Virus record (IMG/VR): IMGVR_UViG_3300030060_003575
Location: 11,142-75,141 of that record
Source: a virus
Strand: one strand, 5' to 3'
Length of the DNA stretch: 64,000 nucleotides
The notes under the pieces were generated by a model. The model was not told where the DNA came from, did not search any database, and saw nothing but the letters and a program-made list of their open reading frames with translations. A program made the translations under genes and the position numbers. The first letter of the stretch is position 1, and the number at the start of each line of letters is the position of its first letter. Positions 11,573 to 46,346 of the stretch are shown one piece after another.

Positions 11573-12258
11573 ATTGTCACCTTGTCTTCACTATTTAATG
11601 TGTCTATTATTCTTTGTGCTAATGTTATTCCTATTCCGTCTATTTTAGTTAATTCATCAACTGTGGCCTCACCTATTTCCATCAAGGAGCCAAAGTCATC
11701 TATTAGTATTTGTGCTTTTGTTGTACTTATTCCTTTTATTGTTGCTAACATGTTTATTCTTAGGTCGTCTGTTGTTATTCTTTTCATCAGTGTTGGGCTT
11801 ATTACATCTCTATTTATTGGTCTCATCTTACATATTGTTGTCATCAGTTTTGCTGCTTTCTTTGGGCCTTCAACCCAGAATACTTTTACATCTGTGTCTA
11901 AGGTTATTTTTCCTATTGCGCCATAAAATTTATTTATTAATAAATGGCTAGGAATGTTAATATTAACGTAGTCTGGATAGGCTAGTGCCTGATGGATAGA
12001 ACCATGTATAACAAGAATACAATGCTCAAAATATCTATCCATATTATCTAATTGATTCCACAATCTCTTGTTAATAACAGATTGTAGAAAGTCAATAGTA
12101 GATTTTGCTTCAAAGCAAACATCACTAAATACATAGTCACCAACCTCAATCCATTGTTTTTCAGTCATAATGTTTAATGCTATACATTCTCTTTTGACTG
12201 CATTAGATAAATCAGAATTTTCCCTACTATCTATAATTAACTTATTCATTCTAACCAC
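11569..12258 (-). CDS. ERCC4/XPF-family structure-specific nuclease with HhH
   Basis: IIDSRE, GDY, EAKSxxDFLQS, and two C-terminal HhH motifs (IKGIS, IDGIG). Confidence 0.85.
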   Translation of the reverse strand: MVRMNKLIIDSRENSDLSNAVKRECIALNIMTEKQWIEVGDYVFSDVCFEAKSTIDFLQSVINKRLWNQLDNMDRYFEHCILVIHGSIHQALAYPDYVNINIPSHLLINKFYGAIGKITLDTDVKVFWVEGPKKAAKLMTTICKMRPINRDVISPTLMKRITTDDLRINMLATIKGISTTKAQILIDDFGSLMEIGEATVDELTKIDGIGITLAQRIIDTLNSEDKVTI

Positions 12259-13387: not shown

Positions 13388-13691
13388 CCTTAAAATTTAC
13401 ATTTGCTGTTTGTAGTTCTTCTTTTATTATATCTGCTATTTTATTATTTAATTGCCTTAATACTTCTCCTTGGAAAAACTCACCAAAAAGCATGTCCTCA
13501 TATATTGGAACATCCCATATTAGGTCTACCTTAGACTTAACATCTAAGTCATCATACATCTCACTAGACATAGTAGTTATTATTTCTGCTACGTTACTAA
13601 TCTCTTGAAATGTCCATGTCTTTTCTTTTAACTTACTTCTTACCTTTTCGCCTATTCTCATAACCATGCACCTTCTTCTGCCGCAGGGCAT
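13290..13691 (-). CDS. hypothetical protein (start probably near 13662)
   Basis: ORF coupled between the primase and nuclease genes. Confidence 0.55.
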   Translation of the reverse strand: MPCGRRRCMVMRIGEKVRSKLKEKTWTFQEISNVAEIITTMSSEMYDDLDVKSKVDLIWDVPIYEDMLFGEFFQGEVLRQLNNKIADIIKEELQTANVNFKDDDKDEVPKRSVGRKPPKKRTTNEKSDSKKQD

Positions 13692-14539
13692 ATACTCATA
13701 AAACTACAATATTGGCATGTATTGTAATAATACTTAGGGTTGAACTCCTGTAACTCATATGCCTTTATTAATTGTGTAATGTTCTTATACACCGCAGTTA
13801 TACTTTGTTTCTTAACTGCTTCTACCTGTAGATAATTAGATTGTGGATAATACCAAGCCCAATTTGTAACGGGTATATTAGGGTCTAATCCATTATCTAA
13901 CAACACTTGCTCTGGAGTATTCTCTATCAATATCTTGTAAAAGGCTAATTCTTTACGCATCATAGTTAATTTATAATCTTTCCAAGGGCCAGTCTTTAAT
14001 TCCATAGGTATATACTTACCATCCTGAACAAACATCCTATCAATTATACCTTGTAAATGCACAACATAATCCCTTTCTAAGACACACTTAGGATTATACG
14101 CATGTGGTATTGTGATTTCTGCATCTAGCATAATCTCATTGATAACTGGTAAATACTCATCTACAGTATCATCCTCTTTAGCCTGTAGGAATCGTTCTGC
14201 TTCAAATATTGATATAGTCTTATACATCTCAGTGTAATCATCTATCGGATGCAGACCCATGTTATAAGTCACTAACTCATCATAACTTAAATTCTCTGCC
14301 TTCTTAACATCAAAGTCATTGAAGAAATCCTCTCTACTATTGTGTACCGCAGTACCTTTAATCATAGCCTCCGTTGTTGATTGAGGTAACCTCAATGGAT
14401 ACGAAAACTCATACTTCTTAGGACACCAGTTAAAGGTTCCAAAAGAAGACTTTGTTATTTTTAATATTGGGTTCTCCGGGTTACTATATTCTGCCGGATA
14501 CCATTTATATGTATATTCTCTCATTTTACCACCACTCAT
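13658..14539 (-). CDS. Cas4-like PD-(D/E)xK exonuclease
   Basis: WCP...GIIDR...ELKTG...CxxCxxxxxC four-cysteine Fe-S arrangement. Confidence 0.8.
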   Translation of the reverse strand: MSGGKMREYTYKWYPAEYSNPENPILKITKSSFGTFNWCPKKYEFSYPLRLPQSTTEAMIKGTAVHNSREDFFNDFDVKKAENLSYDELVTYNMGLHPIDDYTEMYKTISIFEAERFLQAKEDDTVDEYLPVINEIMLDAEITIPHAYNPKCVLERDYVVHLQGIIDRMFVQDGKYIPMELKTGPWKDYKLTMMRKELAFYKILIENTPEQVLLDNGLDPNIPVTNWAWYYPQSNYLQVEAVKKQSITAVYKNITQLIKAYELQEFNPKYYYNTCQYCSFMSICPAAEEGAWL

Positions 14540-15443
14540 TTAAATTTGTTTGATTTATATCTTGACTAATTGGTTTAGTGTCCCAACCCATTGCCATGTA
14601 AATAGGTTCTGCCTTTTTAATAACAGATAATGCATAATGCCTCCAATCAGGCTGGAAGTTACAATGCTTATTTAAGTCTACTAAACTAGAAGCCGCAAGA
14701 TATGTAGGCCTCTTAGATACCCCTGTAATTGGATTAACGTAAGTAGGTCTAGATGGGTCATCTGATACTCTCACATAAACATAAGAATCTTCTATGGGAA
14801 CACCATAGACTTGATTCCACCATATAACACCTTCAATACCGCCACCAATACTAGGGTCTTTACCCATCATGGTTCTCAACAATAAGTCTTTACCACACTT
14901 ACTACAAAAAGCATTTTGAGTAAACTCTTTCCTTATCTTTAATACGTCATCTATGTCATATTCTTTAGAACAAAAGTTACACTTGTAACGAACACGTTCT
15001 GGTTTGAACCTACTTCTGTTCGTAATATTCTTTATATCAATCTCACCATTCAGAACCTTGTTATATTCTGTCTTGAGATAGTTAGTTATTTCCTGTTCTG
15101 ATTTCTTTTCAACCCACATTTTTAAAACTGTCAATTGAATATCTTTTGCTAATTGAGTTATTGCCACTCTCTTTGCAGCAAAACCAGTCATAACAAATTC
15201 AGGCTCATCTAATGTAACACCGTCCTTCCAAGAAATAAGCCCCGCGTTTCTATTCTTAGTTATACCAACGCCTAAAGACTCATAATATTTCTCAAACTCT
15301 AATGTTACAGGGTGTTCTTTTAATCCTAAAAGATTAGGAAACAGTCCTCTTACATGGTTATTCAATAAAGCCAATGTTTCTTCTGCTCGATTCATTGGCA
15401 TTTCTACATAGATAGAATCAGTATGTCCATAAACCACTTTCAT
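14526..15443 (-). CDS. polB: family B DNA polymerase, C-terminal part (split gene)
   Basis: Begins MKVVYGHTDS (motif C variant), then LEFEK, KNRNAG, a CxxC...CxxC insertion and a C-terminal PIP-like QTNLNEWW. Confidence 0.9.
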   Translation of the reverse strand: MKVVYGHTDSIYVEMPMNRAEETLALLNNHVRGLFPNLLGLKEHPVTLEFEKYYESLGVGITKNRNAGLISWKDGVTLDEPEFVMTGFAAKRVAITQLAKDIQLTVLKMWVEKKSEQEITNYLKTEYNKVLNGEIDIKNITNRSRFKPERVRYKCNFCSKEYDIDDVLKIRKEFTQNAFCSKCGKDLLLRTMMGKDPSIGGGIEGVIWWNQVYGVPIEDSYVYVRVSDDPSRPTYVNPITGVSKRPTYLAASSLVDLNKHCNFQPDWRHYALSVIKKAEPIYMAMGWDTKPISQDINQTNLNEWW

Positions 15444-16238
15444 TCTACTCTCTCCCAATGTTTTTCATACTTAGTATTAAATCTAAACATCCCGCCTATG
15501 TCATCTAGGTATTCAATTACATATACTGGTAGATACCAATCATGTTCTACATTTACTACCATTGCTTTTTTGCTGGTTAGTCTATTTACTATTATATCAT
15601 TTATTCTAAAAATTGTCATTTATATATTCCCCTTCTTTCTAGCATACAAATATTTTGCTGCTTCATTGATGCATCTAGGACACAGGTTGCCATACATTGT
15701 TGATTGTAAAGCAATTACTATACCATCGGTGTCATCTTTACCATCATAGGTCTCACAATAAAAACACGGTTTCATTATTCTTCCTCCCATAAACTTTCAT
15801 CCCAAGGGTTTACCATGACGATGTAATCATTGACAAAAACATTGATACAAGGAATACAAATACTACCCCCGTCTACCTCAACATATTGTCTTATACCAAA
15901 TATTGTTCTATTGGTATGATTACACACAACACAAGTTTCTATTTGGTGTTGCGATTTATCGCCTGCAAACCATATGGTCATTCTTCTTCTCTCACCTCAA
16001 CGAATAACCAAGCACCAGTTTGCATACATTTACATCTCACATTTTCACTTCCTGTTTACAATAAGTACACAGGCCTTCATCATCAACACTACGATGATGC
16101 TTATTATATTGACAATTACAATAATACTTTCTCATTTTAATATCTCCTTACTTTCTCATCTTGTAATGACCTTAATAATGCATGAACAAATACAACATAA
16201 AAGGCTACTATAGGTATCGTACATAAAAGTTCCGTCAT
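15440..16238 (-). other. six coupled micro-ORFs between the polB halves
   Basis: Manual translation: 16238-16137 (33 aa, hydrophobic), one from 16135 (32 aa, Cys/His), a 20-aa ORF, 15981-15775 (68 aa, two CxxC), 15775-15620 (51 aa, two CxxC) and 15619-15440 (59 aa). Starts and stops overlap or abut. Confidence 0.6.
15775..15981 (-). CDS. small zinc-finger protein
   Basis: CVVC...ICIPC. Confidence 0.6.
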   Translation of the reverse strand: MTIWFAGDKSQHQIETCVVCNHTNRTIFGIRQYVEVDGGSICIPCINVFVNDYIVMVNPWDESLWEEE

Positions 16239-17887
16239 ATTTCCATCACCTTAAACGCTGCTGCTCTAATTGCCTCTCTAGCACTAGCAGTAATACTAGC
16301 AGCCAAATCAACATCAGCCCAGCCAAACCCTTGATAAGCAACGATACCGTAAAAAGAGGCCATTAATCTTTTTACAGCAAGTTGATTGTTGCTCCACTTA
16401 ACATAGTTATCTGGGTCAGTCTTCATCTTCTTTTTATATTCATCTCGCAATTCCTTTAACTCTAAAACTGCTTTAGGTAAAAGCCCAAGTTTATCTGTTT
16501 TATAATAAAGCATTTGCTCATCATCCTCTATCGAGAAATCTCTAGGTGTTAGAATGTTAACACCAAACTCAGTAGGTTCATCTGATTTGGTTTCCCATGA
16601 TATATTCCGGGCTATCATCATAGAGGGATACAGTTGTGCAAAATCAAACGCAGCCACACCTAGATGTAAACCGTTTGTCCCTTCTGTTTCGGGGTTGTAA
16701 ATCATAGCCCCTTGATAATCAACCTTATCACCATGTTCACCAGTAGGTGCCTTCCAAGTAGCATTACGCATAAAGTATATACCACCCATGTTACTAGCAT
16801 AAAAGCAAGCATCGAATGGTGCCTTTAGTAAACGCTGTAATGCAATAACTGCTTCCGATGTGTAGTTCTCTTCATCTATCCTAACAAGAAGCATAACGTC
16901 AACTGCTGCATAATCAAGATAGTGCTTGGTATCTTCCAACCATCCTCTAGAAAAGAATTCATTCTTATCTGGAAACTTTTCCGATACAAGTTTCTTCTCA
17001 CCTAATACAATATCAGCAACGTAATCTAATGCTAATGATGGTAGTGTTCCTCTTTGAGCATCATTCCATTGTCTCTCAAAAGCCAAGTCTAGATTTAATA
17101 CTAGCCTTCCTCTGATTGGTTGTTCAATAGGGCTATAATTGTTCACGTTCTTGGAAAGTTTGATACCTTCATCAAAATAAACCCCCTTCACATCATTATA
17201 TGGAGATAATTTTCTGGGGTCTAGCCCGTTGGCATAGAGTCTTTCGATTAATTTAGGCAAATCGAACTTAGACCCGAACCAAGAAATCATCATATCTGGG
17301 TCTTCTCTAGTCAAGTGACCCACAAAATTCTCTAACATTTCTTTTTCAGTTAGAAACCCTTCACCAATAAGATTTCTTTTCGGTGGTGTATCTCTAGGCA
17401 ACCAATAAGAAACTCTATTTCTTTTAGTGTAGTTATCATAGAAAACCATACAAGTGATAGCACCATCGTGTTCACCCCCCTGCTGCCATTCTAAATCCCA
17501 ATACCACTTTCTGAGATTATACTCAGGCATCTCAGATATGTGGTCTATTGCATATCTATAATGATAAGCAACGTCTGCTTCATAGGTTTGCTTCCACTCC
17601 TTTCTGAGTGTTCGCATATATCCGGGCTTCGGTGGAAACCATGTTACCTTCTTTAACGGTTCACCATCTAGATTAACAGCGTCACCGCTACTGTCATACA
17701 CCAAATCAATACCAATGCTTTTACCAAAATCCCGAAAAGAAACCCGGTGTATTTCTCTTTCACTTTGTTTAATATAAAAATAAGGTGGTGCTTCATTATA
17801 CTCAACTTCCCTTTCTTGTCTATTATTATTCTGGTCTCTCCATCTTAGACCTATCATATTATTTTTATCTACTGTACTAATTATCAT
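16235..17887 (-). CDS. polB: family B DNA polymerase, N-terminal part (exonuclease plus motifs A and B)
   Basis: WDLEW, FGSKFD and YAAVD exonuclease motifs; DFAQLYPS (motif A); KRLMASFYG (motif B). Confidence 0.92.
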   Translation of the reverse strand: MIISTVDKNNMIGLRWRDQNNNRQEREVEYNEAPPYFYIKQSEREIHRVSFRDFGKSIGIDLVYDSSGDAVNLDGEPLKKVTWFPPKPGYMRTLRKEWKQTYEADVAYHYRYAIDHISEMPEYNLRKWYWDLEWQQGGEHDGAITCMVFYDNYTKRNRVSYWLPRDTPPKRNLIGEGFLTEKEMLENFVGHLTREDPDMMISWFGSKFDLPKLIERLYANGLDPRKLSPYNDVKGVYFDEGIKLSKNVNNYSPIEQPIRGRLVLNLDLAFERQWNDAQRGTLPSLALDYVADIVLGEKKLVSEKFPDKNEFFSRGWLEDTKHYLDYAAVDVMLLVRIDEENYTSEAVIALQRLLKAPFDACFYASNMGGIYFMRNATWKAPTGEHGDKVDYQGAMIYNPETEGTNGLHLGVAAFDFAQLYPSMMIARNISWETKSDEPTEFGVNILTPRDFSIEDDEQMLYYKTDKLGLLPKAVLELKELRDEYKKKMKTDPDNYVKWSNNQLAVKRLMASFYGIVAYQGFGWADVDLAASITASAREAIRAAAFKVMEI

Positions 17888-24257: not shown

Positions 24258-24649
24258 AATTCACCTTTTATTTGTAGTATTCTTTCCAACCCCTCAAGGG
24301 TATGATGTTCGCCATTGTCTAAGATTTCTACTATCTCTTCAAAATCATTCCAATTGTTTTTAGCATCTGGTAAGTCTGGTATTAATTGACATAACTTCCA
24401 GATGTTAGTCAAACCACCTATTGTCAATATAGGTCTTGGTCTACTCTTATGTTCTTTTTCTTTGTAGTTTGCTTCTACACCATTCTGTGCAAGTGTTCTT
24501 TGCACACCAATCAAAAAGTCAGATGAACCTCTTATGTTCACCCTAACTCTAACTCTATATCCTATCTGTAACTTAGAGGCTTTTGCTACATGAACCTCAG
24601 GTTTAGCAATAGATAGGAGGATACCTTGCAATTGTCCTTTACTATACAT
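24254..24649 (-). CDS. single-domain LAGLIDADG-like protein (degenerate active site)
   Basis: N-terminal helix LQGILLSIA and C-terminal HHTLEGLERILQIK, typical of LAGLIDADG homing endonucleases. Confidence 0.6.
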   Translation of the reverse strand: MYSKGQLQGILLSIAKPEVHVAKASKLQIGYRVRVRVNIRGSSDFLIGVQRTLAQNGVEANYKEKEHKSRPRPILTIGGLTNIWKLCQLIPDLPDAKNNWNDFEEIVEILDNGEHHTLEGLERILQIKGEL

Positions 24650-29249: not shown

Positions 29250-29874
29250 TTATTATTATTTTATCTGCTACTTTTTCTTCATTAAACCAACGTTGAATCC
29301 ATTGCGCCCCATATCCAGCAATCGCAACGTGAGTAAAATGTAACACTTCCTTCTTTCCCGATTCGTTAAAGTTTTCACCTTGACAGGAAAAGGAACCTTC
29401 TGGCCCCGTAAGAAATGTTTCACTAAACTTAGGGTCTGTTAAATAACTGATAAGTGCTCCATTGCGACCCTGCGCCCTCAGGTCTAACCACTTAGTTTTA
29501 CAATCATCTTGAAACCCTTCTGCATAGAGAAGTTTCCGTACTGCTAGATTATCTGCACAACATACAACTAAATCATATCCTTCTATTTGTTTTCTGGTTA
29601 CGATTGGAAATTGAATCCCAAGTCGGATACCAACATCATTGTAATGATTCATACATGTTGTTTCTCTTTTCATAGCGGAAACCTTCATCATATCCAGAGA
29701 CCCTACTGCATAGTTTTGATAACTTAGGTTCTTTTCTTCTACAGTATCTGGGTCTGCTATCGTTATTTCATATAGTTCTGTCTTGTGTAAAAGCGGTGCT
29801 AGAAAACTTCCAATACCGCCTACACCAATTATTAATATTTTTCTTGTCATTTTAATTACCTTATCCCTGCACAA
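29242..29874 (-). CDS. ThiF/MoeB/E1-like adenylating enzyme
   Basis: IIGVGGIGS, DxDTVEEKNLxxQ, K, VVCCADNLAVR and a later Cys (FSC). Confidence 0.9.
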   Translation of the reverse strand: MCRDKVIKMTRKILIIGVGGIGSFLAPLLHKTELYEITIADPDTVEEKNLSYQNYAVGSLDMMKVSAMKRETTCMNHYNDVGIRLGIQFPIVTRKQIEGYDLVVCCADNLAVRKLLYAEGFQDDCKTKWLDLRAQGRNGALISYLTDPKFSETFLTGPEGSFSCQGENFNESGKKEVLHFTHVAIAGYGAQWIQRWFNEEKVADKIIINV

Positions 29875-30788
29875 AATCCTTCTACATCCAACGTTGATAG
29901 TTTATCCTTATCTATATTGAACATAGGATATAGTTTCTTAGTTGTCAATCTTTGTGCTACTGCTGTGCATTTGCAAGCATCACAAATTGCCTGTTGAGTA
30001 TGTTCAACCTTACCAATCTTTCTAAGCATAGAGGCTATCCAAACAGCAGAAGCCATATGACTCCTTGTAAAATGAATATCTCTCAACGTTAGATAATCAT
30101 GGATATAATTTACAACCGTCTTTGTTTCCGATGTAAACTCAATCGAGGCATCTAAGTCAGAACATATTCTATCAACCCAAGGATTAATAGGCATGTTTTG
30201 CAGTATGTTAGACTTGCCTAAATGTCTAGCAAAATGTCTAGCATACTTAGATACCTTATGTGCATCTTCATTGTTTTGTTCTGCTATTTCAGATATTGTT
30301 ATAGGAACCCCATTTTCTCTCAAACAAATAACAACAATCGCACATGCTCGTAATGGCAATGTCACTCCCCTTAACTTATGGTCTAGATACAAAGAACGAT
30401 AGTAACTGTGTACTCTGTCCTTTAACCCATGATTTGGTAGGAATGGTGACATAACCATATTACATTCTAACAATCCCTTTTGAATAGAGGTTTCATGTGA
30501 ACTACTTCTAAATCTCTTATTAGTCCTTCTAAGTTGTCTACTCAAACGACTGTTATCATCATTACCAATTAGTGACCCTAATTCTCCGGGTCTATCTATT
30601 TCATTCTTATAGGTAAAATTACCTGCTTTCAATTGTTCATAGTCAATGGTTCGGTTTGTCTTATCCTCAAAGATATTACGAACCTGCACATAACCACAAT
30701 CATCACAGACTGTTTCACCCATTCTATCATCATAACTAAAATTATTTCCATCACATTCTTCACATTTCATGAAATCACCGTGTCCCAA
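29856..30788 (-). CDS. tfb: transcription initiation factor IIB (TFB) homologue
   Basis: Zn ribbon CEEC...GETVCDDCGYV and two cyclin-like repeats (PITISEIA; TQQAI). Confidence 0.85.
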   Translation of the reverse strand: MGHGDFMKCEECDGNNFSYDDRMGETVCDDCGYVQVRNIFEDKTNRTIDYEQLKAGNFTYKNEIDRPGELGSLIGNDDNSRLSRQLRRTNKRFRSSSHETSIQKGLLECNMVMSPFLPNHGLKDRVHSYYRSLYLDHKLRGVTLPLRACAIVVICLRENGVPITISEIAEQNNEDAHKVSKYARHFARHLGKSNILQNMPINPWVDRICSDLDASIEFTSETKTVVNYIHDYLTLRDIHFTRSHMASAVWIASMLRKIGKVEHTQQAICDACKCTAVAQRLTTKKLYPMFNIDKDKLSTLDVEGFCAGIR

Positions 30789-36033: not shown

Positions 36034-37181
36034 TCATTCCTTGTATTATCGCGCTTTAGTTTTTTTATCCAAGAACTCGCGTCATGCTTGGAGATTTCAT
36101 CAAGGTCGCCTTCATACCCTAACTTAATCAAATAGTCCTTTTGTTTCTGTGTGGCTAATTCAACGTTCCCATCACCGTTTACTATATCCCACAGTTTATT
36201 CACTTGATTTTCACTCAAAACAGTACCATTTAACATTTTCTTCTTAATATCTTTAAGGAAACTTTCTTCCCAATTGTCCTTACCCTGTTCAGGAACAAAC
36301 GGTTTTATTCCATAATACTCACAGGCTTCGGCAAATTCTTCCGAATGTGTGATGTTCTCAAGGTTTGCCACAACTTTTTGCTTCCTTTCAAAGTCTCTCG
36401 TCTTGGCTCTCTTTTGATTTCTATCAAATTCTTCCAGAGTCTCGCGTCTTTTAGCCAACATTTTGTCCTCTTTTTCCACTTCTGCCTCTGCCTGTTCCAC
36501 GTTAAAGAAGAACATCAACAAATCGCTGTAAAGTTTCTGATTAGGAAAACCGTAGGTATTTATCTGCGCTTTTGGATTATCTGGATGATTCCATCTCCAA
36601 ACTATAGAAGCCATTCTATAGCCGGGTTGTCCATACTTTCCACTTGAAGACTTACGGATATAGGTTTTATCTCGATACATTTTGTGGTATGCATCATAAT
36701 ATCTACCTTTCTTTCTAACGTTCACTCTTAGGTCAAGGTCTTTGACCCTATCAAACATATTAGTAAACTGCTCCCCATGTAGTCTCCACCAAGCATTTCT
36801 CTTTAACGCTTGAACTCTAACAGTAATCCATTCCTCTATCATTTCATCAGTAATCTGGTCATCTGCTAAACCAGTTTCTTCTTTGATAGCCCTAAAGATT
36901 AGGTAAGAGTTAATGTGGTCTGAACCTACACATTCACGCACACCAGTCTCAGTATTGTGAATCTCAAAGTGATATACTATATCATGTCCACATAAACACT
37001 TACGAATATGTTTCTTTGCCCATTCGGGTGGGTCACCCAATTCACTCCACCAAACTTCACCAGTGGCTATCCACTCATGTTTGGCATCATCGTAATTATC
37101 AGCCTTGGATAGAATAACCATATTTTCTATTAGTTTTCTATCCCAACGACCATTACCTAATTGTCTATTAGGCTTAACCAT
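36024..37181 (-). CDS. hypothetical protein with Zn-binding motif
   Basis: CLCGH...VGSDH; C-terminal ATQKQ..YL..LG...ASxWI motif. Confidence 0.7.
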   Translation of the reverse strand: MVKPNRQLGNGRWDRKLIENMVILSKADNYDDAKHEWIATGEVWWSELGDPPEWAKKHIRKCLCGHDIVYHFEIHNTETGVRECVGSDHINSYLIFRAIKEETGLADDQITDEMIEEWITVRVQALKRNAWWRLHGEQFTNMFDRVKDLDLRVNVRKKGRYYDAYHKMYRDKTYIRKSSSGKYGQPGYRMASIVWRWNHPDNPKAQINTYGFPNQKLYSDLLMFFFNVEQAEAEVEKEDKMLAKRRETLEEFDRNQKRAKTRDFERKQKVVANLENITHSEEFAEACEYYGIKPFVPEQGKDNWEESFLKDIKKKMLNGTVLSENQVNKLWDIVNGDGNVELATQKQKDYLIKLGYEGDLDEISKHDASSWIKKLKRDNTRNDWT

Positions 37182-37630
37182 TAGGCATTACTCCCTGCTG
37201 GCCCCTTATCATACTTATCATATGGGGTATTAGTCTGATGTTTAAATCTATTCAATTTAGACTGCGTTGCTTGCCTTCTTCTTGCTATTGCATTGTTCTT
37301 CGTTAATTCATCAACAGCAATACGTGAAAACTGGGGCTGATTACCTCCTGCACCAGTCAATAAATAATCCCACACTTTAATAGTGCTGTCTTTATTTTTA
37401 AGTGTATACATGAAATATCTGCCTTCCTTTTTTGCCTTCTCTCTTACTTCTGTTGTCCACTCTAATCCTCTTTCAAATATAGTGAGGTCTTCTCTATAAT
37501 CATTCGGCATTGGAGGAACACCGTCTATTTGCATAACATTCTTTCTGTCTACAACAACATAGACTTTACCAGAGTATTGTCCTTTTATTCCTCTGACAAT
37601 TTCGCCATCTGTTAATACTTTATATGCCAT
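37181..37630 (-). CDS. hypothetical protein
   Basis: Coupled ORF. Confidence 0.65.
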   Translation of the reverse strand: MAYKVLTDGEIVRGIKGQYSGKVYVVVDRKNVMQIDGVPPMPNDYREDLTIFERGLEWTTEVREKAKKEGRYFMYTLKNKDSTIKVWDYLLTGAGGNQPQFSRIAVDELTKNNAIARRRQATQSKLNRFKHQTNTPYDKYDKGPAGSNA

Positions 37631-38045
37631 TATTCTTCCTCTTCGTTTGTATTATAGTACAAAAGATGGTAAATTGCATCATTCAAATAAGTTTCATCGT
37701 TCACATTATAATTGATGAGCAATTCTATTATTTGTTCCATGCCTTCATCTGTTTGTGCTTTCTTCATCGTTGCTCTAATCAATTCTAGATTCATTTAGAT
37801 ACCTCTCATATACATTCTTATCCCAATACCAAATTGCTGCGATTGCTACTGTTGCATACAAAGCAAACAGTTCTGCAAAATCCCTAAAGGTATATTCTAT
37901 TTTCTCAATCCACGGATGGTAGTTATAATTCACTTTGAAAACCTCCGTAGTTTGGCTACTCTCCTACAATGAGCGCAGGGTGATTGCTTATGAATTGCTC
38001 CCTTCGGGATGCCGAATCCGCAAACCTCACAATTATGTTTAGCCA

Positions 38046-38237
38046 TTATTGCACACCTGCCTTGTAATCATACCATTCCAAGAATGGTACTGTTTTAGTC
38101 TCTATGGTGAATATAGTTCCACTACATAGATGCACTTCAACAAACCCATCATCTGTTCTTGTTACTGCTGCTATCTGTTCATATTTAAATCTGGTATAAC
38201 CAGTTCCTGTCTTATAATAATTATCTATCTCATTCAT
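38046..38237 (-). CDS. hypothetical protein
   Basis: GAGGA RBS, 63 aa. Confidence 0.55.
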   Translation of the reverse strand: MNEIDNYYKTGTGYTRFKYEQIAAVTRTDDGFVEVHLCSGTIFTIETKTVPFLEWYDYKAGVQ

Positions 38238-38530
38238 ATTTATTCCTCAAAAATTTCTTTGCATCTTCCAAACTATCAATTATTTGAACTTGATGCATAA
38301 TGCCCAAATGGACTTTCTTCCTCTTTTTGTCTTCTATATATTGGTCAGCCATCCATTGCCTGAGTCTTAACGCTTCTAACTTATCTAATACTATTAAATA
38401 ATCCATTATTCTTCCTCCATACTAGGTATAGTCACTAAGACTACTTTACAATCATCACACAAATCATCCATTCTTGTCATCCATTCGTTACAAGTTGGAC
38501 ACTTTACTGATACTCTTCCCGACATACTTT

Positions 38531-38779
38531 TCACTCCATTTTCTGGAATGCTCTTTGGTCTGCTAGATGACTTGTTAATAGTTCATCTATCTTACCAAAC
38601 AATGCTTCTGCACATCCTCCAATAGTCTTTCTATGTAAACATAGCCAAATCGCATAATCACGATTGATAACTACCTTTGGTTGGTCTTGCTCATCCATAG
38701 TTATTACTATGGGTGGCATATCCACATCTTCAATTAAACGAAACTCAATCTCCCTTTTATCTTGTTCCTCTAATCTCAT
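38531..38779 (-). CDS. hypothetical protein
   Basis: Coupled ORF. Confidence 0.6.
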   Translation of the reverse strand: MRLEEQDKREIEFRLIEDVDMPPIVITMDEQDQPKVVINRDYAIWLCLHRKTIGGCAEALFGKIDELLTSHLADQRAFQKME

Positions 38780-39153
38780 TCTATTCCCACCGCTTTATCT
38801 TTTGTTTCCTTGAGCCTTTGTTCTTGGTCAAAAGAATTCTTTTGAATCTCTAGTTCATTATCTAGATTCTTGATTCTAAAGACGGCAGAATCAACTACCT
38901 GTCTTTCTTCCAATAACGTCCACTTTGGCATATTTAGCCATTCTATCTTCATTACAAGAGGGTAGGCAATACTTACCATCTGTCCCTCTTTCGTCTTAAG
39001 GTTCAAGAAGGAGTTTGCCATTGGCATATTGACATAAATCATCTCTCCTTCTATAGTCTCCAAACTCTCCCCATAGTCCTCAGACTCCTTATACTTATCC
39101 ATTGAGTATGTTACTCTCATGTTTAACTTGTTTTCTTTTTTCCAACTTTTCAT
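38776..39153 (-). CDS. hypothetical protein
   Basis: GAGGT RBS, 125 aa. Confidence 0.6.
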   Translation of the reverse strand: MKSWKKENKLNMRVTYSMDKYKESEDYGESLETIEGEMIYVNMPMANSFLNLKTKEGQMVSIAYPLVMKIEWLNMPKWTLLEERQVVDSAVFRIKNLDNELEIQKNSFDQEQRLKETKDKAVGIE

Positions 39154-39370
39154 TTTATTACCTCGTAATTGTCCTATCTTTCAGAACCTATTAAGGGTTT
39201 GCCCTCACGTTATTAAACCATCCACCATAACGCTTGCATTCTTCCTTAACATAACAATCACATGGTTCTGGTATGTATTCACCGATTGCTATCTGTTTCA
39301 TTATTATTCCTTTTATACATTTTTTGCATTCTTTCATTTTTATTTGCCTCCTATAAATATAGGTTTGAAT

Positions 39371-39457
39371 TGGTTGCGGGAGGGGGATTTGAACCCCCGA
39401 AGCACTACGCACCGAATCTTAAGTCCGGCCCCTTTGACCATACTTGGGAATCCCGCA
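39371..39457 (-). tRNA. trnL: tRNA-Leu(UAA) with encoded CCA
   Basis: Acceptor TGCGGGA/TCCCGCA plus ACCA; anticodon arm CCGGA-CTTAAGA-TTCGG; long variable arm; T arm GGGGG-TTCAAAT-CCCCC. Confidence 0.93.
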
Positions 39458-39462
39458 TTATG

Positions 39463-39714: not shown

Positions 39715-40296
39715 TTATTCACGCATATTAACTAGCAAAAGAACCAAGTATCCTATTAGGTCTTTTACTACGTCTTCATCAGATTCTAATGATGCATTAC
39801 CTTGCATCAACCTGTTCAATTTATCATCTATGCGAACTTTCAACTGTTCTGTCTTATCAGCCCTAGAAAATATTCTTATTGGCTGTAAAGCGGAATCACC
39901 ATATTGGTCATTCTTATCAAGGAGAAACTGTGTTATTTCTCCCATTGTCTTTGAAATCTTAAAACTGGATTCGTCTTGGCCCTTCACAGGCTTGGCCTGC
40001 TCTTTCGCCTTATTATACTTACCCGCTATCAGATTAGGTTGCATATGTGTTCCCCATTGAGAGGAACCCATTATCTTTTTAAGATAAGGTTCATTTATTA
40101 TCTTCTCTTTAGATTGACTCTTTGGTTTTCTACCACCATTTCTTTTACTGATTGTTCCTTGAGCCTGTAGTCTGTAAATGCGTTGTCTTACAGAACCGAC
40201 TGTTCTATTCATTTTCTTGGCTATTGCTATCGCAGTTAGCCCTTGCTTCCACAGTTTCATTAACTGTGTTTCTTCTTTCTTTGTCCATTTCGTCAT
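39715..40296 (-). CDS. HTH protein fused to a DUF1599/nucleotide-modification-associated domain
   Basis: N-terminal KWTKKEE...IAKKMNRTVGSV; C-terminal KNDQYGDS...RIDDKLNR...DVVKDLIGY. Confidence 0.7.
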   Translation of the reverse strand: MTKWTKKEETQLMKLWKQGLTAIAIAKKMNRTVGSVRQRIYRLQAQGTISKRNGGRKPKSQSKEKIINEPYLKKIMGSSQWGTHMQPNLIAGKYNKAKEQAKPVKGQDESSFKISKTMGEITQFLLDKNDQYGDSALQPIRIFSRADKTEQLKVRIDDKLNRLMQGNASLESDEDVVKDLIGYLVLLLVNMRE

Positions 40297-40329
40297 AAAA
40301 TCACCGATGTTAATTATCTCAGTTTCTTG

Positions 40330-40700
40330 CAGAGTGTTGTTTCCACAACATTTCTACAAGTCTGGAAACGACATAATGATGCGGTTAGCATCACTAACTC
40401 AGCCATATTGCCCCCATTCGTTTTCGTTTCCATTTTTCCATCATTTACACCCCCTGCTCAAAAGGAAGGAAGGAAGGAAGGAAGGAAGGATAGAGAGAGA
40501 GGGGTGGAAAAGTATGTAATAATGTAAATATATTATAATGTATTAGATATATTATCTAACTCTTCCATTCTATCTCACTTTCATTTCCAACTCCAATTGG
40601 AAACGTGGAAACGTTTGACCCCCTTATCATATCATATAGGATATGTCATATGCATAAGTGTATAGTATATACATATATTATACATAGAGAGTCTTCCCGG
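40330..40700. other. candidate replication origin (TGGAAA boxes, purine tract, AT-rich element)
   Basis: Several TGGAAA(C)/TTTCCA boxes in both orientations, (AAGG)7 and an AT-rich stretch at 40510-40560, at the edge of the strand switch. Confidence 0.4.
40462..40489 (+). repeat. (AAGG)7 microsatellite within a polypurine tract
   Basis: Read directly from the sequence. Confidence 0.95.
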
Positions 40701-41025
40701 TACATATCGAATCAATGGCGCGATTTAACATCATAACATTTTACGCCATAAATTCTGATTAGTATATACTGGCCTTTGGTGGAATACGTGCTTGTAAGGC
40801 CATTGATTGTAATTGCCACCAACAATTCTATAGATGGCAGGGGATATATAAGTCGGCGGCACCCCTCGATGCCCCTCGTCTATAAATATCCTATTTGTCG
40901 AACCATATGGTATCAACAACTTTGTCCAGTTGAAACCTGATTTTGAGGAGTCCGACAGGAAAGGGCGACTTTATCCCTTTCCTGCCAGACAAGAATTGCT
41001 GCTAACTAGGCGTGAAAGAAGGGTT

Positions 41026-41535
41026 TTATTCCTCTTCCTCCACAAAGTCGTATTCTGCACAAGCGGCAAGTCCATCTAGTGAACCATCCCATGAGCCGTC
41101 CTTGTAAAGTTCCCTTGCCGTCTGCTTTGCTTTCTTAGCGAGGGTGTTTGCGTAATCATTAGCATCTGTGAACACAGGTGGCCCTGCGCTCTTTCCGTGC
41201 TTTCTGAGCAATGGCTGAGAATACTGCGCTGTGCTCTCAAAGAACGTATATGCAGCCTCTCGGATTGCTTCAGCAGCAGAATCAACCACTACTGATGCAG
41301 CAGCAGGTAGTAATCCTTGATTACCTCTGCGCCATACAACCTTTCCTGAAGGGAAGTCCTTCAGCATTGCTTTAATGGATAGAGCCAAAGCAGCCCTATT
41401 ATCCACATTGTTGTCACCAGTCTCTATTAGCATAGTTGCTAGAGACCTTACATCATCGGGGATTGTTCCATCAACGTCACCCTCGATGCATGAGTTTACC
41501 TTCATCTTTACCGATTCCCAATTTACTTCATCCAT
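41026..41535 (-). CDS. cassette-borne hypothetical protein, paralogue of 43265-43798
   Basis: Likely start MDEVNW downstream of a TATA box; shares HGKSxG...YA...WDGS with the second cassette gene. Confidence 0.75.
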   Translation of the reverse strand: MDEVNWESVKMKVNSCIEGDVDGTIPDDVRSLATMLIETGDNNVDNRAALALSIKAMLKDFPSGKVVWRRGNQGLLPAAASVVVDSAAEAIREAAYTFFESTAQYSQPLLRKHGKSAGPPVFTDANDYANTLAKKAKQTARELYKDGSWDGSLDGLAACAEYDFVEEEE

Positions 41536-41595
41536 AATATTCACTTTCCTATTTTTTCTTTCTTTGCCCGTTAGCGGCATAGTTGTCAATTCTCT

Positions 41596-41614
41596 GGGAT
41601 ATATAAGAGGTTTC
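41596..41614 (-). promoter_or_regulatory. archaeal BRE/TATA promoter of cassette A
   Basis: Minus strand reads GAAACCTCTTATATATCCC; the same CTTATATATCCC 12-mer recurs at 40841-40852. Confidence 0.6.
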
Positions 41615-43264
41615 AAACAAAGCGAAACCATATGGTAATGAGAGTTTTTTCAGGATACAAAGAAACATGCATAGAAAAACGCGCGAATTTTCCTTAGTCT
41701 AAATTCTTAGTGTGTTTTCTGCACCTCAGTTTCCACTGGTTTTGTTATTTAACATCACTTCTTTTACGCCCATTACATGACCATATGGATAGTTAGTACG
41801 TAGTTACGAGAGGGTCTATGAGAGTCGAGGACTCGTTTAGACTGCTATAAAGTCGAATAGACGTAAACTGCGTTAAGCAGTAGTAGACGGTAGCATAGGG
41901 TGAAGTAAAAGAAGGATTGCGGGTGACTGGTCTACGTACTCAGTTTCCCGATACATGAGGATATTTTACATGCTTACGCATAATTAACACCATATGATAG
42001 CAGTGTAACGTTAGTTAAACGTAATGAATAATGGTGTTTAATGAAACACCAATGAAATGTAGTAACGATACGTGTAACGAGGTATCTGATTGCTTCTACG
42101 AAGACGCTACGCTACAATCATATGGTGTTGATAAAACATAGGTGGCACTGAAAAGGTACCGCTTGTTTACAATATCCTTATGATTTGCTCCGCTTTTTAC
42201 TATAGCCTATGCTACGTGCTTAATGCACTGTCGCAAAAAGAGTTCCCAAATCATATGGTTGGTTAAGGTTTCCTCTGGTTACCAGTGTGAGGTGCGGAAC
42301 TAAGGTGCATTACGCACCAACGAAGGTGGTTTGTTCCGGCACGAACATGGTAAGCGGAGGTGCCAATTATACAACCTCAATGGGATTGGTCTATTCATCT
42401 CATTTAACCAACCATATGGTTATAATTCCTCTGGTATACGATTAAAGATGATTAGACACATTAAGTGTCCATCAGGATACCAGAGGAATATATACCCTAA
42501 TAAAAAAAATAGGGTCTTGCGTCATAAGGCCTATATCCCTTAGCCTGTAACTTGACAGCACACCTCGTCCGGTACTACTGTGCGAGAGAAAATATGAATT
42601 CTTCATAATCCCTACATAAATGTAAACGGACGCTAAATGCGTCTTATCGTTTTATATACATTTATTCTCGCCCGTTGTACCACGACGATTGTGCTGCAAT
42701 TTACAGCCTAACGCCTATAAAACCTTATCTCATACCATATGGTCGTAGACCTTAAGGGAACGTTAAAGGAATCTAACTCCGCGCACTTGTACGCATTGTC
42801 TCATGCACCTTTGTTGGTGCTAAATGCACCTTTTCGACAATGGCACGAAGTCCACTTCCGTTATATCCTTTAACTTCTTCGACCCATATGATACTAATGA
42901 AATGGTGTTTGTAAAAAAAGTCGCGGTAACTTGTTAGCGTGACTACTCTACGTTAGTGCGTTAAGCACTAATCTAGATGTAGTAGCATAGGGTTTTTTAC
43001 AAACAAGTATCTGATAGTCCAAGTATTCCTATCATATGGGTTTAGGTTCCAAAGATATACAAGAGGTGAAGATAAAAGAAAAATGCATTAAGCATGAGCC
43101 GTAGGCGGTTCTTTTATTATTGGCGGAAGCCATGCTTCACCTATTGTATAGCACGGAACAACTACCCTCAATTGGGGTCATGTTCTCTAAAGTGAGAACA
43201 TGTTACCATATGGTCATAACTTTGTGAAAAAGACCAGAAGAGGTTGGTGGCGACTAAAACCAAC

Positions 43265-43798
43265 CTATTCTTCTGAACCCCCATTATCGGTGACGGCTGG
43301 ATAGCCATCATCGGTGTACGACCCGTCCCAGTAGTATCTCTTATCGGTACCATTGGTAAACGCATTGAAAGCGGCATTCAAGAATAGCCTCTCTTTCTTG
43401 GTCATATCATCTGCGTATGCAGATGCACCATCATCCATAGTGGAGTAAAGAACCCCACCGGACTTTCCGTGTGTCTTCGCAGTACCAGCCACTAGAGGGT
43501 ACACGACTGTTGCCATGTTATCCCTGAAGGTTGCTAGGTACTTGTCGAAATCGGACTTAACGGCAGTTGTCATTAGAGACTTTCTACCGCCACCAATAGG
43601 TGAATTGTCCAAATCAGCGAATACTACGCTGATGCTCGACCAGTGCCTCTTCCTGAGGTCAGGCTGTGCATCGCCTATTGCGAAGAGACCATCTACAATG
43701 ACCCTTCTTCCCTCATGCTCTGGGTTCGCGTCAAACCACTCATTGACGTGTTCTTTCTTGTTGTTCCATACGCTGTCTTCCATGCTGTAATCAACCAT
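43265..43798 (-). CDS. cassette-borne hypothetical protein, paralogue of 41026-41535
   Basis: GGAGTGA RBS; THGKSGG...AYADDM...YWDGS. Confidence 0.75.
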   Translation of the reverse strand: MVDYSMEDSVWNNKKEHVNEWFDANPEHEGRRVIVDGLFAIGDAQPDLRKRHWSSISVVFADLDNSPIGGGRKSLMTTAVKSDFDKYLATFRDNMATVVYPLVAGTAKTHGKSGGVLYSTMDDGASAYADDMTKKERLFLNAAFNAFTNGTDKRYYWDGSYTDDGYPAVTDNGGSEE

Positions 43799-43854
43799 AT
43801 CTATCACTCCTGTGAATTAGGTGGTTTAGTCGCCACCATAGCACTATTTTCAAT

Positions 43855-43868
43855 GGTATATTTAAGGT
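43855..43868 (-). promoter_or_regulatory. TATA-like promoter of cassette B
   Basis: Minus strand reads ACCTTAAATATACC; equivalent boxes sit at the same position in cassette C (ACCTTAAGTAAA, near 44480) and cassette D (ACCTTATAAATT, near 45005). Confidence 0.55.
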
Positions 43869-44099
43869 ACAGTTTAAACAAAGTAACGTACCATATGGGT
43901 GCAGGTTTAAGAATGCGTAGCATTCTCATTTAGTTGCTCGGCAACGATAAACGAGCAACAAATGGCAAACCAAAGCCCCGTGGGAATGTTTGAGGCACGT
44001 AGTAAGATGCTGCTGGTGTCCTTAGACTTGGCTTAATGCCAACGAGTCCAGCAGCACCTGTTATCTACTTCCATATGGTCATACTTTGTTAAACAGACC

Positions 44100-44465
44100 A
44101 TAATCGCTCAACAATGATGCAACGATTTAAACTTGCGCTAACATCAATTTTACAAGTCGTTGTCTTACTCACTATTGAGATGCATCGTTTTTTGGTAACT
44201 GCCAGAAACGTGCAAAACTGGCTCAAGGATGGATGAGTGGATTCGTTTCCTTACCCTCAAGGTTACATGGGTGTTAGTTCATGCCATTAATTTTGCATGG
44301 GCTTTAACCCGTACCTACCAATAACCGACCCGCTAAGGTCATTGTAGTGCCTGTCTTTTTCTTCGACCGACTCCCTGTGCCGCTAAGCACCGATTATTGT
44401 GCCTTTCACCCTAACAACGGTGATATTCAGCCAATCCGGGTCACTCCGTCAAGTGACATAGCAAT
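44100..44465 (-). ncRNA. putative structured ncRNA occupying cassette C
   Basis: Same promoter and end architecture as the gene cassettes, but no ORF of 60 aa or more; multiple hairpins, two with an identical CGCTAA loop on + (TTAGCG on -). Confidence 0.45.
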
Positions 44466-44678
44466 AATATTGATGGTTTACTTAAGGTAATGTTTAACAA
44501 AGTTACATTACCATATGGGTTGGCATTAAGCCAATGTTTAGACATTCCCTCATTTATCTGGCTGCGAGTACCGCTAGGCTTACATTAACCTCTGAAGGAG
44601 GTCTAAACAACCTCTTATCTTCCGAGGTTAATTGATACTCTCATCCATATGGTATTGAACTTTGTCAACAATACCTGA

Positions 44679-44879
44679 CTAACTGGAATCATCTCCAGTT
44701 AAGCCAAGATAATCATTCAATGCTAGATTCAAATCATCCATGACTTGACCCAAATCATCACCTGATACACGTAGTTTACTGATTGAAAGCACCAGTGAAG
44801 AACCAGATTTCATATGCTTGACTTCAAGCACATATTTGGGTTCGTTGATTTGTTGAACGATTGTTTTTTCTTCTGTCAT
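44679..44879 (-). CDS. cassette-borne small hypothetical protein
   Basis: GGTGA RBS, 66 aa, inside cassette D. Confidence 0.65.
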   Translation of the reverse strand: MTEEKTIVQQINEPKYVLEVKHMKSGSSLVLSISKLRVSGDDLGQVMDDLNLALNDYLGLTGDDSS

Positions 44880-46346
44880 AATATCACCAAAGGTGGAGGG
44901 GCCATTGAACCAAGTGACTACTTACAGGCATTGAATGCTCGGCGGCAATATACTGTATTATCCAGTGTTGGTTGGCCCCTCTATATCAATAGGTATTATG
45001 TAATTTATAAGGTAATGTTTACAAAGCCCATTACCATATGGTTTAGTAAGTGACGGTCTTACTTGCCAGGGAAGGTACGTATACGCGCTTCAGGAACGTA
45101 AGTCGTTTAAACGCATTAAGCGTTAGACAAGTGAACGCGCGTAAACGTCCTGGAACTGGCAAGTAAGAGCAGGAACGCACGTTAAAACCCCGTTAAACCT
45201 GAAGGGCATAAGGAACCTCCTTTAAGGCACTCTTGCTTAACGTAACTTAGACAAGACATATCTTCCGTTAAACGCTTTTGCTGGTACTTAATGTACCTAC
45301 CACTCCATATCTGTCTTGTCTAACTTACGTTAAGCAAGGTAAACCTTAAATCCAACTCCATATGATACGAGGTAGGATTCATCTGGGCTTTAGGCCCAAA
45401 CTAAGGTGGTATGAATCCTTTGAAGTATCTTATGAGGATAGGATAAGCAAGCGGTATATCCACAAGGGAGAAACCTATGCAATATTCCCACCATATGTTC
45501 ACATAAGTGGGCGAACTCAATGGGGATTTATGGGCAATTACCTCCATCTTCGTTCATGTCTTATATCAAGACATTGTGTGTATTATCATATGCCCATTAC
45601 CATATGGTTCCAGCATCGCTGGAAGATAACTTGCAATGGAAGCATACAGCAATGAAAGACGCATTAAGCGTCCACTTAGGTGTAGCAGGCTGTATGCATC
45701 CTAAATGCAAGTTATTCACAGCCCCATTTGAGGATATACATCCATATGGTTATTAATCACTTTCTACAAGAATGTCCTCCAAGGGCTTGTAAAATGTCCT
45801 AGAGACGCATTAAGCGTCTAACAAAGGTGAAGGGACATTTTAAGGGGATTCGCCGTAGAAAGTTACAACGCAGTGTTAATCACCTCAGGTTGCTTAACGC
45901 TTCGCTACAACCATATGCTTTGCATTCGATTTTTTTTCTTATTAAACATTCGTTTGTTTACCCGATTTTGGCATAAGATTTTGTTCTACCTAAGAACACT
46001 TTGATATAGAAGCATCTTAGATGCGCGTATAGAGAAGGCTCAGGTGTGCTAAACATATTTTAATTAATTAAAAATAGATTCGCGGTGCTTCAAGGATACA
46101 AAGAAACAAGTATGCTCTAAACACTGCTATTCAACCATTGATACACTGTGATTAAATAACAAACAAAGGCTTATTCTGGAAATGCACAAGTTTTATATAG
46201 AAAAAAAACGCAAGTGCCGGATAAATTACAGGTCAAATTTTGAAAAATAAAGGTCTAAAAAATTCCGCCAAAAAAATGGGGTAAATAGAGAATGAAAAAA
46301 CTACCATTAAAGAAGGTAAAATTAACAAAGTTTAGGTGGTGGGACT

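Follow-up and report, generated by a model that had tools for sequence, protein, structure and literature searches.

A rearranging array of palindrome-bounded modules at the strand switch of a magrovirus-like genome

Introduction

How do some twenty short DNA modules come to lie end to end in a viral genome, joined at one recurring palindrome, and what kind of locus do they form? The question is raised by a 5-kb array in a 64,000-nucleotide stretch of viral DNA, bases 11142-75141 of the 75-kb IMG/VR record IMGVR_UViG_3300030060_003575, which we refer to as the window and in which all positions are numbered. An earlier reading of this DNA, made without database searches (the sequence-only reading), had described a chain of fold-back modules separated by CATATG-core sites and had recognised no known array type in it. 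This was a fair judgement, as the nearest described system is the promoter-early stem-loop (PeSL) cassette of T4-type phages, and we found no description of the palindrome motif in magrovirus papers or by searching with the sequence string.

The best explanation of the array is a block of accessory cassettes: autonomous modules follow one another head to tail, each with the palindrome ACCATATGGT at its ends. New here are the covariation and polarity of the modules that lack an open reading frame (ORF), the identification of a manA RNA, and module translocations at the level of strains.

Results

A conserved palindrome at the module junctions

A comparison with shuffled sequence, which the sequence-only reading had proposed, bears out the enrichment of the junction motif: the 64-kb window has 14 copies of CCATATGG where 1.0 is expected, 0 of 100 shuffles reach that count, and 13 of the 14 copies fall in 40903-45749. 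The CATATG core is found 44 times in the window against 22 expected. Within the array 23 copies were counted, and exclusion of the one that lies inside an ORF (44811) leaves the 22 junction-like sites originally described; their spacings are also as claimed, mostly 128-209 bp, with two of about 323 bp and four long modules. Across 203 sites in 18 related arrays the junction consensus is the 10-bp ACCATATGGT, whose positions are conserved at 87% (A), 94% (C), 100% (CATATG), 89% (G) and 78% (T) of sites, and the consensus is kept in viruses whose protein encoded beside the array (the flanking protein) falls to 41% identity. Neighbouring modules share exactly one TA, between ACCA and TGGT.

The proposal that each site pairs, through its right half, with the left half of the following site is correct, but it follows trivially from the symmetry of the palindrome; past TATGG(T), the inverted match between module ends was no better than chance among 281 non-redundant modules, with module W05 (13 nt) as the exception. 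The co-varying end variants that had been noticed are real. Modules that start with A end with T in all three window cases, and in 5 of 12 cases across relatives against 0.6 expected, with the consequence that an excised module's own junction would be a perfect palindrome. A second palindrome, (C)CCTTAAGG(G), was observed in a subset of small modules just inside a junction-adjoining hairpin of the GGTC-GTA-GACC type, at 42742-42765 in the window and in many modules of the related arrays L005, L045, L056 and L059; its middle CCC could pair either way.

Modules are moved, inverted, gained and lost among relatives

Relatives were collected with two proteins: the flanking protein retrieved 35 viral contigs, and the protein of the first module, W00, retrieved 23 metagenome contigs. 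All relatives with sufficient sequence carry a palindrome array in the corresponding place, with 4-28 junction sites, and among the 40-odd related contigs module order, orientation and content differ, even between strains that are ~94-99% identical. This comparison of close relatives, suggested in the sequence-only reading, strongly supports its idea of a modular, rearrangeable system: order and orientation are not invariant, and whole modules have been translocated, inverted, gained and lost at CATATG.

Several comparisons show the pattern. Set against L005, the window has collinear flanks at ~80% identity, but modules W10, W12 and W14 stand elsewhere and in the opposite orientation; each of the 8 alignment ends falls no more than 7 nt from a junction. 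Inversion of W10 relative to the flanks recurs in L005, L008, L025 and others, and that of W14 in L005, L008, L009 and L026. In L043, which has a W00 cassette of 99.5% DNA identity, W02 has moved 2.5 kb to the W12/W13 junction and W03 is missing; module identity between this contig and the window ranges from 87% to 99.5% in a module-wise mosaic. W07 is absent from L042 and L044 has one extra module, with exact junction sequences in these contigs, and the joins 41781>42119 and 41988>44510 appear in contigs from an unrelated seawater run of 2024. The pairs L005/L045 and L059/L060 each have ~15 families in common, scrambled in order and orientation.

At the joints, the bases just outside CATATG stay with their own module, which argues that exchange takes place within the 6-bp core, and the loss of a module leaves a perfect single palindrome without a footprint. 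The modules themselves are mostly unique: 102 were singletons among 215, a larger set comprised 281 families, and the number of small modules per relative varies from 0 to ~25, with sequences that are almost all different. In DNA runs X2 and X3, which are >99% identical to the window, a contig enters W02 at 41780 from a foreign 101 nt that ends in a module-like manner (...GGATAATTACATTATTCCC), pointing to another left neighbour for W02 in these strains.

Modules without an open reading frame are folded and polar

About 15 modules of the window array, 115-330 bp in length, are ORF-less. The region had been called nearly ORF-free, which holds overall except for three real ORFs on the minus strand (Table 1); in the small modules, frames that start from the junction ATG open no further than in shuffled sequence. 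The internal stems quoted in the sequence-only reading are present and exceed chance, since small modules fold more stably than shuffles (-0.243 versus -0.188 kcal/mol per nt). Covariation across related viruses, which had been named as a check, was found as well: most small-module families keep their helices through compensatory substitutions, with few broken pairs and with slid-partner controls near zero (compensatory changes at 8 of 47 pairs in W08 and 7 of 54 in W07). W01 has no conserved fold, as 13 of its 36 predicted pairs are broken. None of the small modules matches an entry in Rfam.

Most small modules of the window lineage carry one C-RTTAA-G pentaloop hairpin, a lineage-specific motif with 10 copies in the array and 0 across 17 kb of flanking sequence. 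Read in the sense of the pentaloop, 77 of 79 non-redundant modules have the hairpin in their 5′ half, and in many modules it falls in the first third; loops of the TAC type, often present as a hairpin at the far end, occur only in the last 45 nt. The small modules are thus polar, with a common layout, but they point in either direction along the genome at random (73 plus versus 71 minus), with no trend along the array.

Long modules are transcription units, one of them for a manA RNA

The four long modules (W00, W10, W12 and W14) all lie on the minus strand as complete transcription units of the archaeal type, and hold three ORFan proteins (169, 180 and 66 aa) and one manA RNA. Their layout (junction, hairpin with a CTTTGT loop, TATA box, gene, T-run, ACAAAG hairpin, junction) is repeated in dozens of homologous cassettes, in which the stem of the promoter-side hairpin covaries; homologues of the W00 cassette alone were found in 28 loci. 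Through the CTTTGT/ACAAAG hairpins the ends of these cargo modules have ~18-30 bp of inverted similarity, and in W14 the inverted ends match at 24 of 30 positions. The cargo proteins matched no Pfam or PHROG family and gave sub-threshold Atlas leads only, among them a weak one from the W10 protein to DUF5895/Pam3_Gp34 (score 0.87).

Contigs of an RNA library (X15) cover 40981-41578 in W00 (598 nt), 43277-43836 in W10 and 44260-44433 in W12, and those in W00 and W10 end ~21 nt downstream of the respective TATA boxes. No contig of this library fell on a small module, which speaks neither for nor against their expression; in five other RNA runs no more than 16% of the sampled words were present. 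Cargo transcripts apparently open with a short hairpin (41566-41578, 43820-43836 and 44440-44457, minus strand), GCCG-CUAA-CGGC in W00, for example, and its form is kept in relatives.

The manA model (RF01745) matches W12 over its full length with 39.2 bits (E 2e-7; gathering score 55.2). Copies in relatives score 29-61 bits, and that of L055 (6320-6554), at 60.9 bits, is above the gathering score, while the others reach 29-47 bits. Membership of the W12 cassette lineage, which has 19 distinct members, in the manA family is supported, and the window copy appears to be a divergent member. Published manA RNAs come from T4-like cyanophages, gamma-proteobacteria and unassigned marine DNA and are usually 5′ leaders (Weinberg et al. 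2010, PMC2864571). W12 resembles them in being marine and virus-borne, and differs from them in belonging to a virus of archaea and in forming a self-contained cassette, which has a TATA box of its own and lacks an ORF downstream. The W12 modules of L052 and L055 are ~850 bp long and have a ~113-aa ORF after the manA RNA, whereas no ORF follows in the window; manA thus occurs both as a stand-alone RNA and as a leader.

A search for recombinases in the viral records

The search for enzymes that might act on the junctions covered five viral records, of which three are at least 90% complete, and every absence of a recombinase or transposase given here refers to these records. Resolvase (PF00239) and Phage_integrase (PF00589) were absent, the latter without a match at E<=1; DDE_3 (PF13358), Y1_Tnp (PF01797), rve (PF00665) and TnpB TNB (PF07282) were likewise absent, and control genomes did match. 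For LAGLIDADG_3 the search returned only a 15-bit match in two of the five records. This weak match lies at 24380-24526 (minus strand) of the window, in a 131-aa frame, and is seen only in this record and its closest relative.

The virus and the surroundings of the array

By gene content and layout, the window virus looks like a group-B-type magrovirus. Group-B magroviruses have been described as having a split PolB, a tRNA-Leu, and replicative and structural blocks that lie apart (Philosof et al., PMC5434244). The window has a family-B polymerase split into two DNA_pol_B ORFs (14526-15458 and 16235-17887), tRNA-Leu, archaeal-type replisome genes and separate replicative and structural blocks; it also encodes an RFC-like ATPase, an ATP-dependent ligase, RNR, and XPF/ERCC4, PD-(D/E)XK and RNase H-like nucleases. 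The array is situated between a leftward replication block (minus strand) and a rightward structural block (plus strand), where the two diverge, so that its placement at a strand switch in the sequence-only reading agrees with both the ORF strands and a turn in GC skew at ~46 kb. A search of a phage collection gave no DNA match to the window, and the best protein matches, at 25% identity, were to tailed viruses of haloarchaea.

On the left, the variable region is bordered by the tRNA-Leu gene. L025 and the window are 95% identical over 36689-39459, up to this tRNA, and divergent beyond it, which places a recombination breakpoint at the tRNA, on the margin of the variable region; past it, L025 has a gene and array like those of L008 at ~70% identity, the gene being that of the flanking helix-turn-helix (HTH) protein. 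This gene lies within ~0.4-0.75 kb of the array in most relatives, and its product has 862 homologues in marine data. The C-terminal domain is almost invariant (KNxQYGDS...RIDDKLxR...DLIGYL) and small, the N-terminal match to HTH_28 reaches 21 bits, under the cut-off, and the protein shows no catalytic signature, nor does its C-terminal domain show a DDE signature. Its position makes it a candidate DNA binder. Between this gene and the array lies an AT-rich, repeat-rich spacer of 600 bp (40296-40903), in which contigs break at 40456-40507 and an IMES-5 match is at chance level (22 bits, E 0.93).

Two further observations concern gene expression. A 310-aa protein encoded at 29856-30788 (minus strand) has a TFIIB-type zinc ribbon at 25.5 bits, just below the cut-off, and such a TFB-like viral factor could steer the RNA polymerase of the host towards viral promoters. 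The 16-mer AGGATACAAAGAAACA is found both in W01 (41652-41668) and in the AT-rich right flank (46103-46119), upstream of the structural operon, and may be a regulatory element common to the two.

Table 1. Features of the array and neighbouring genes in the window (a point in the strand column: no strand assigned)
Feature	Position	Strand	Description
Whole array	40903-45918	.	20 modules, 21 CATATG-core junctions
Junction starts, left part	40904, 41629, 41782, 41991, 42119, 42252, 42413, 42736, 42885, 43033, 43207		
Junction starts, right part	43892, 44072, 44512, 44646, 45035, 45359, (45492), 45587/45601, 45743, 45912		
W00	40904-41634	-	Cargo cassette; ORF 41026-41535 (169 aa, ORFan), TATA box 41599-41606
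W01	41629-41787	.	ORF-less, weakly structured; usually adjoins W00 in relatives
W02-W09	41782-43212	.	Eight ORF-less structured modules; C-RTTAA-G pentaloop hairpins in either orientation
W02	41782-41996		
W03	41991-42124		
W04	42119-42257		
W05	42252-42418		
W06	42413-42741		Double
W07	42736-42890		
W08	42885-43038		
W09	43033-43212		
W10	43207-43897	-	Cargo cassette; ORF 43265-43807 (180 aa, ORFan), hairpin and TATA box 43857-43865
W11	43892-44077	.	ORF-less, structured; pentaloop on minus strand
W12	44072-44517	-	Cargo cassette; manA RNA 44226-44456 (-), hairpin, TATA-like box 44477-44485, no conserved ORF
W13	44512-44651	.	ORF-less, structured; pentaloop hairpin 10 nt off junction
W14	44646-45040	-	Cargo cassette; ORF 44679-44879 (66 aa), hairpin and TATA box 45003-45010
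W15	45035-45364	.	ORF-less, double; pentaloops on both strands
W16 and W17	45359-45592	.	ORF-less
Junction doublet	45587/45601		14 bp
W18	45601-45748	.	ORF-less
W19	45743-45917	.	ORF-less
tRNA-Leu(UAA)	39371-39457	-	Left edge of variable region
Flanking HTH gene	39715-40296	-	N-terminal HTH (HTH_28/GcrA-like), highly conserved C-terminal domain
XPF/ERCC4 nuclease	11569-12258		
PD-(D/E)XK nuclease	13658-14539		

Discussion

Understanding how the cassette block is rearranged requires an account of what happens at the palindrome. We propose that a factor recognising ACCATATGGT would cut and rejoin the DNA at the central TA; the symmetry of the core would allow any pair of junctions to be joined in either orientation, and such joining would lead to inversion, excision and re-insertion and, through these, to the permutations that are observed. 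The enzyme may be a novel viral protein or a host protein. We favour a palindrome-recognising factor, although its existence is hypothetical and we give it about an even chance, since the palindrome is kept across deeply diverged viruses, the small modules share nothing else with their neighbours, and the breaks are confined to 6 bp. In its fullest form the proposal is that magroviruses possess a dedicated, orientation-free system of site-specific recombination, with the core ACCA/TA/TGGT and an enzyme outside the known recombinase families, which moves promoter-bearing genes and a large superfamily of folded elements, not recognised before, between co-infecting viruses. These elements would be 115-250 nt long, belong to at least 150 sequence families, share the pentaloop hairpin and act as RNA or single-stranded DNA. 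We advance this larger picture tentatively, and consider it rather unlikely to hold in all its parts.

With somewhat less assurance than for the exchange itself, we suggest that the ORF-less modules work as folded single strands whose function would be independent of genome orientation. They might act as single-stranded DNA elements, to which we assign a probability a little short of even, or as non-coding RNA, a possibility that we rate as appreciable though clearly under one half. The G-U share of their pairs (8.9%, compared with 13.6% in shuffles and 12% in manA) is uninformative on the strand.

Several points weigh against these proposals. No member of six common recombinase and transposase families was found, which leaves the cut-and-rejoin enzyme hypothetical, and the palindrome could be conserved for other reasons, as the site of a regulator, for instance, with recombination as a by-product. 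The rearrangements are deduced from assemblies and contigs rather than from reads within one population; dense repeats can break or mis-join short-read assemblies, though the same joins recur in independent studies. As for the small modules, no TATA-like peak is present near either junction or upstream of the pentaloop hairpin, a strand-neutral count of G-U versus A-C gave no asymmetry (GT 26, AC 21), and folding energy shows only a weak strand bias among the 79 non-redundant modules (47:32, p=0.11), so that better folding of the RTTAA strand, which a first count had indicated (19 of 23 modules), was not upheld.

The main rival explanation dispenses with a dedicated enzyme and follows the model of the PeSLs, mobile regulatory cassettes that populate hyperplastic regions in T4-type phages and are characterised by exchange through homologous recombination and by mini-circles (Arbiol et al. 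2010, PMC2839356; Comeau et al. 2014, PMC4122927); PeSLs appear to be the closest known analogue of the array, by analogy and not by homology. Both are blocks of small, non-essential and mostly ORFan genes; each gene has its own promoter and stem-loop/terminator, which in the window applies to the cargo cassettes only and not to the ~15 small modules; and indels and replacements between close relatives map to a repeated boundary signal. On this account the palindrome and hairpins would be regulatory signals, forming a terminator-promoter joint that is perhaps the site of a dimeric regulator (the HTH protein) or a TFB-linked factor, and shuffling would result incidentally when the viral replication and recombination proteins carry out ordinary homologous or microhomology recombination and switch templates. 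In keeping with this, the cargo palindrome is located exactly between a T-run terminator and a hairpin-plus-TATA promoter, as in PeSLs; the inverted similarity of cargo ends, at ~18-30 bp, offers more homology than 10 bp; the virus encodes three kinds of nuclease (XPF/ERCC4, PD-(D/E)XK and RNase H-like) and a ligase; and no recombinase was found. The small modules, however, have the palindrome at both ends without promoter or terminator signals, and they move and flip as often as cargo although they share only the 10-bp core with their neighbours. Exchange in the array is confined to 6 bp, in contrast to the 50-70-bp homologous motif over which it is spread in PeSLs, and the translocation of a single module by 2.5 kb with all else unchanged would take two precise 10-bp exchanges if homology alone were at work. 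The array also differs from PeSLs in its archaeal host and TATA-type promoters, as opposed to the sigma-70 early promoters of bacterial T4-type phages, in the invariance of a 10-bp perfect palindrome at its boundaries, in the free inversion and permutation of its modules, and in that three quarters of these are ORF-less, promoter-less structured elements. The PeSL model is therefore a good fit to the cargo cassettes and a poor one to the promoter-less modules, and as an account of the whole array we regard it as possible but doubtful.

Other explanations are far less probable. If the modules were non-autonomous TGGT...ACCA elements that insert at TA with duplication, in the manner of IS630/Tc1-mariner derivatives or Correia-like miniature inverted-repeat transposable elements (MITEs), and that prefer to land in the TA beside an existing element, arrays would grow by tandem insertion; the single TA shared between adjacent ACCA and TGGT, the inverted terminal similarity of cargo modules, the covariation of variant ends within a module and the neighbouring HTH_28-type domain (21 bits, below the cut-off), a fold common in IS630-type transposases, speak for this. 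We nevertheless find such transposition improbable, as no DDE_3, rve or Y1 catalytic domain was found, the C-terminal domain of the HTH protein lacks a DDE signature, the modules are unique rather than multicopy and have no copies outside the array, and their loss restores a perfect single palindrome. The sequence-only reading had also entertained a precursor of multiple RNAs, in which pairing palindromes in long transcripts would serve as processing sites that free ~20 small structured RNAs. Structured modules with covariation, one of which is a genuine RNA (manA), and the ability of any two junctions to form a 10-bp duplex accord with it, but random polarity would make half the modules antisense in any one precursor, the operons on either side run outward from the array, the promoters that can be recognised belong to one cassette each, with its own TATA box and a T-run at its end, and the predicted junction duplex is a perfect helix without the bulge-helix-bulge motif of the archaeal splicing endonuclease; we consider it very unlikely. 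A replication-origin platform, with hairpin modules as priming or unwinding signals like plasmid sso/ssi and with shuffling as an incidental matter, would suit the location of the array at the GC-skew minimum where the gene blocks diverge, the polar, folded and orientation-specific 130-200-nt elements on both strands, and the lack of promoters in small modules. Yet the elements are so variable in number and sequence among relatives that they resemble dispensable cargo more than an essential origin, there is no switch of orientation along the array, and the pentaloop motif is lineage-specific, all of which gives this idea scant probability. Nothing ties the array, which is internal to the 75-kb record, to genome ends, and the suggestion of an end or ejection signal is not supported.

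Comparison with other cassette and inversion systems leads to similar conclusions. As in integrons, unrelated cassettes lie in tandem at one locus, with conserved boundaries, unique cargo and some non-coding members, and folded recombination sites show compensatory evolution. An integron-like array, one of the possibilities raised in the sequence-only reading, was nonetheless rejected: there is no IntI or any other tyrosine recombinase (PF00589), nor a serine recombinase, and no attI, attC or Pc promoter; cargo cassettes have their own TATA boxes; cassettes invert freely and occur at random in both orientations, whereas integron cassettes are co-oriented and promoterless; and the junction is the 10-bp ACCATATGGT rather than R/L boxes with GTTRRRY. 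Shufflons (Rci of R64) and the Gin, Hin and Cin systems likewise invert and reorder segments at short repeated sites. Membership in these classes was rejected on the absence of PF00589 and PF00239, and the array further differs in that segments are also gained and lost, in that it does not switch the 3′ end of one gene, and in that its sites are perfectly symmetric where sfx, hix and gix are asymmetric or imperfect. The resemblance to TA-duplicating MITEs (Correia; IS630/Tc1-mariner derivatives) lies in TG...CA-like ends at TA, a length of 100-200 bp and a folded form; their membership, also considered in the sequence-only reading, was rejected because the modules are unique, with footprint-free loss and no outside copies, and because DDE_3, rve and Y1 are absent from the viral records (a host-encoded transposase was not searched). 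PATE-like elements of the IS200/IS605 type were rejected on the absence of Y1_Tnp and TnpB TNB and because array junctions are symmetric, in contrast to the asymmetric ends of PATEs, which lack inverted repeats.

Palindrome pairs 120-150 bp apart form 33 stretches in ~30 magrovirus-sized IMG/VR contigs, and the two-palindrome pattern in 596 Gb of prokaryote genomes gave 22 stretches against ~17 by chance, indicating no cellular array. A contig from an Erysipelotrichaceae metagenome-assembled genome (L116) has a 198-bp tandem repeat in which each unit happens to include ACCATATGGT; this repeat has no relation to the arrays of magroviruses.

Magroviruses are among the most abundant archaeal viruses of the surface ocean. 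If the reading proposed here is true, one locus that swaps genes and folded elements would be their main route for accessory genes, and the array would be the equivalent, in archaeal viruses, of integrons and PeSLs. A protein that reads the palindrome, if there is one, would be a new kind of recombinase or nuclease with a very short symmetric site. The W12 cassette bears on the function of manA, as a stand-alone unit in an archaeal virus, and the ORF-less modules would be either a store of novel viral non-coding RNAs or structured DNA elements of a novel class.

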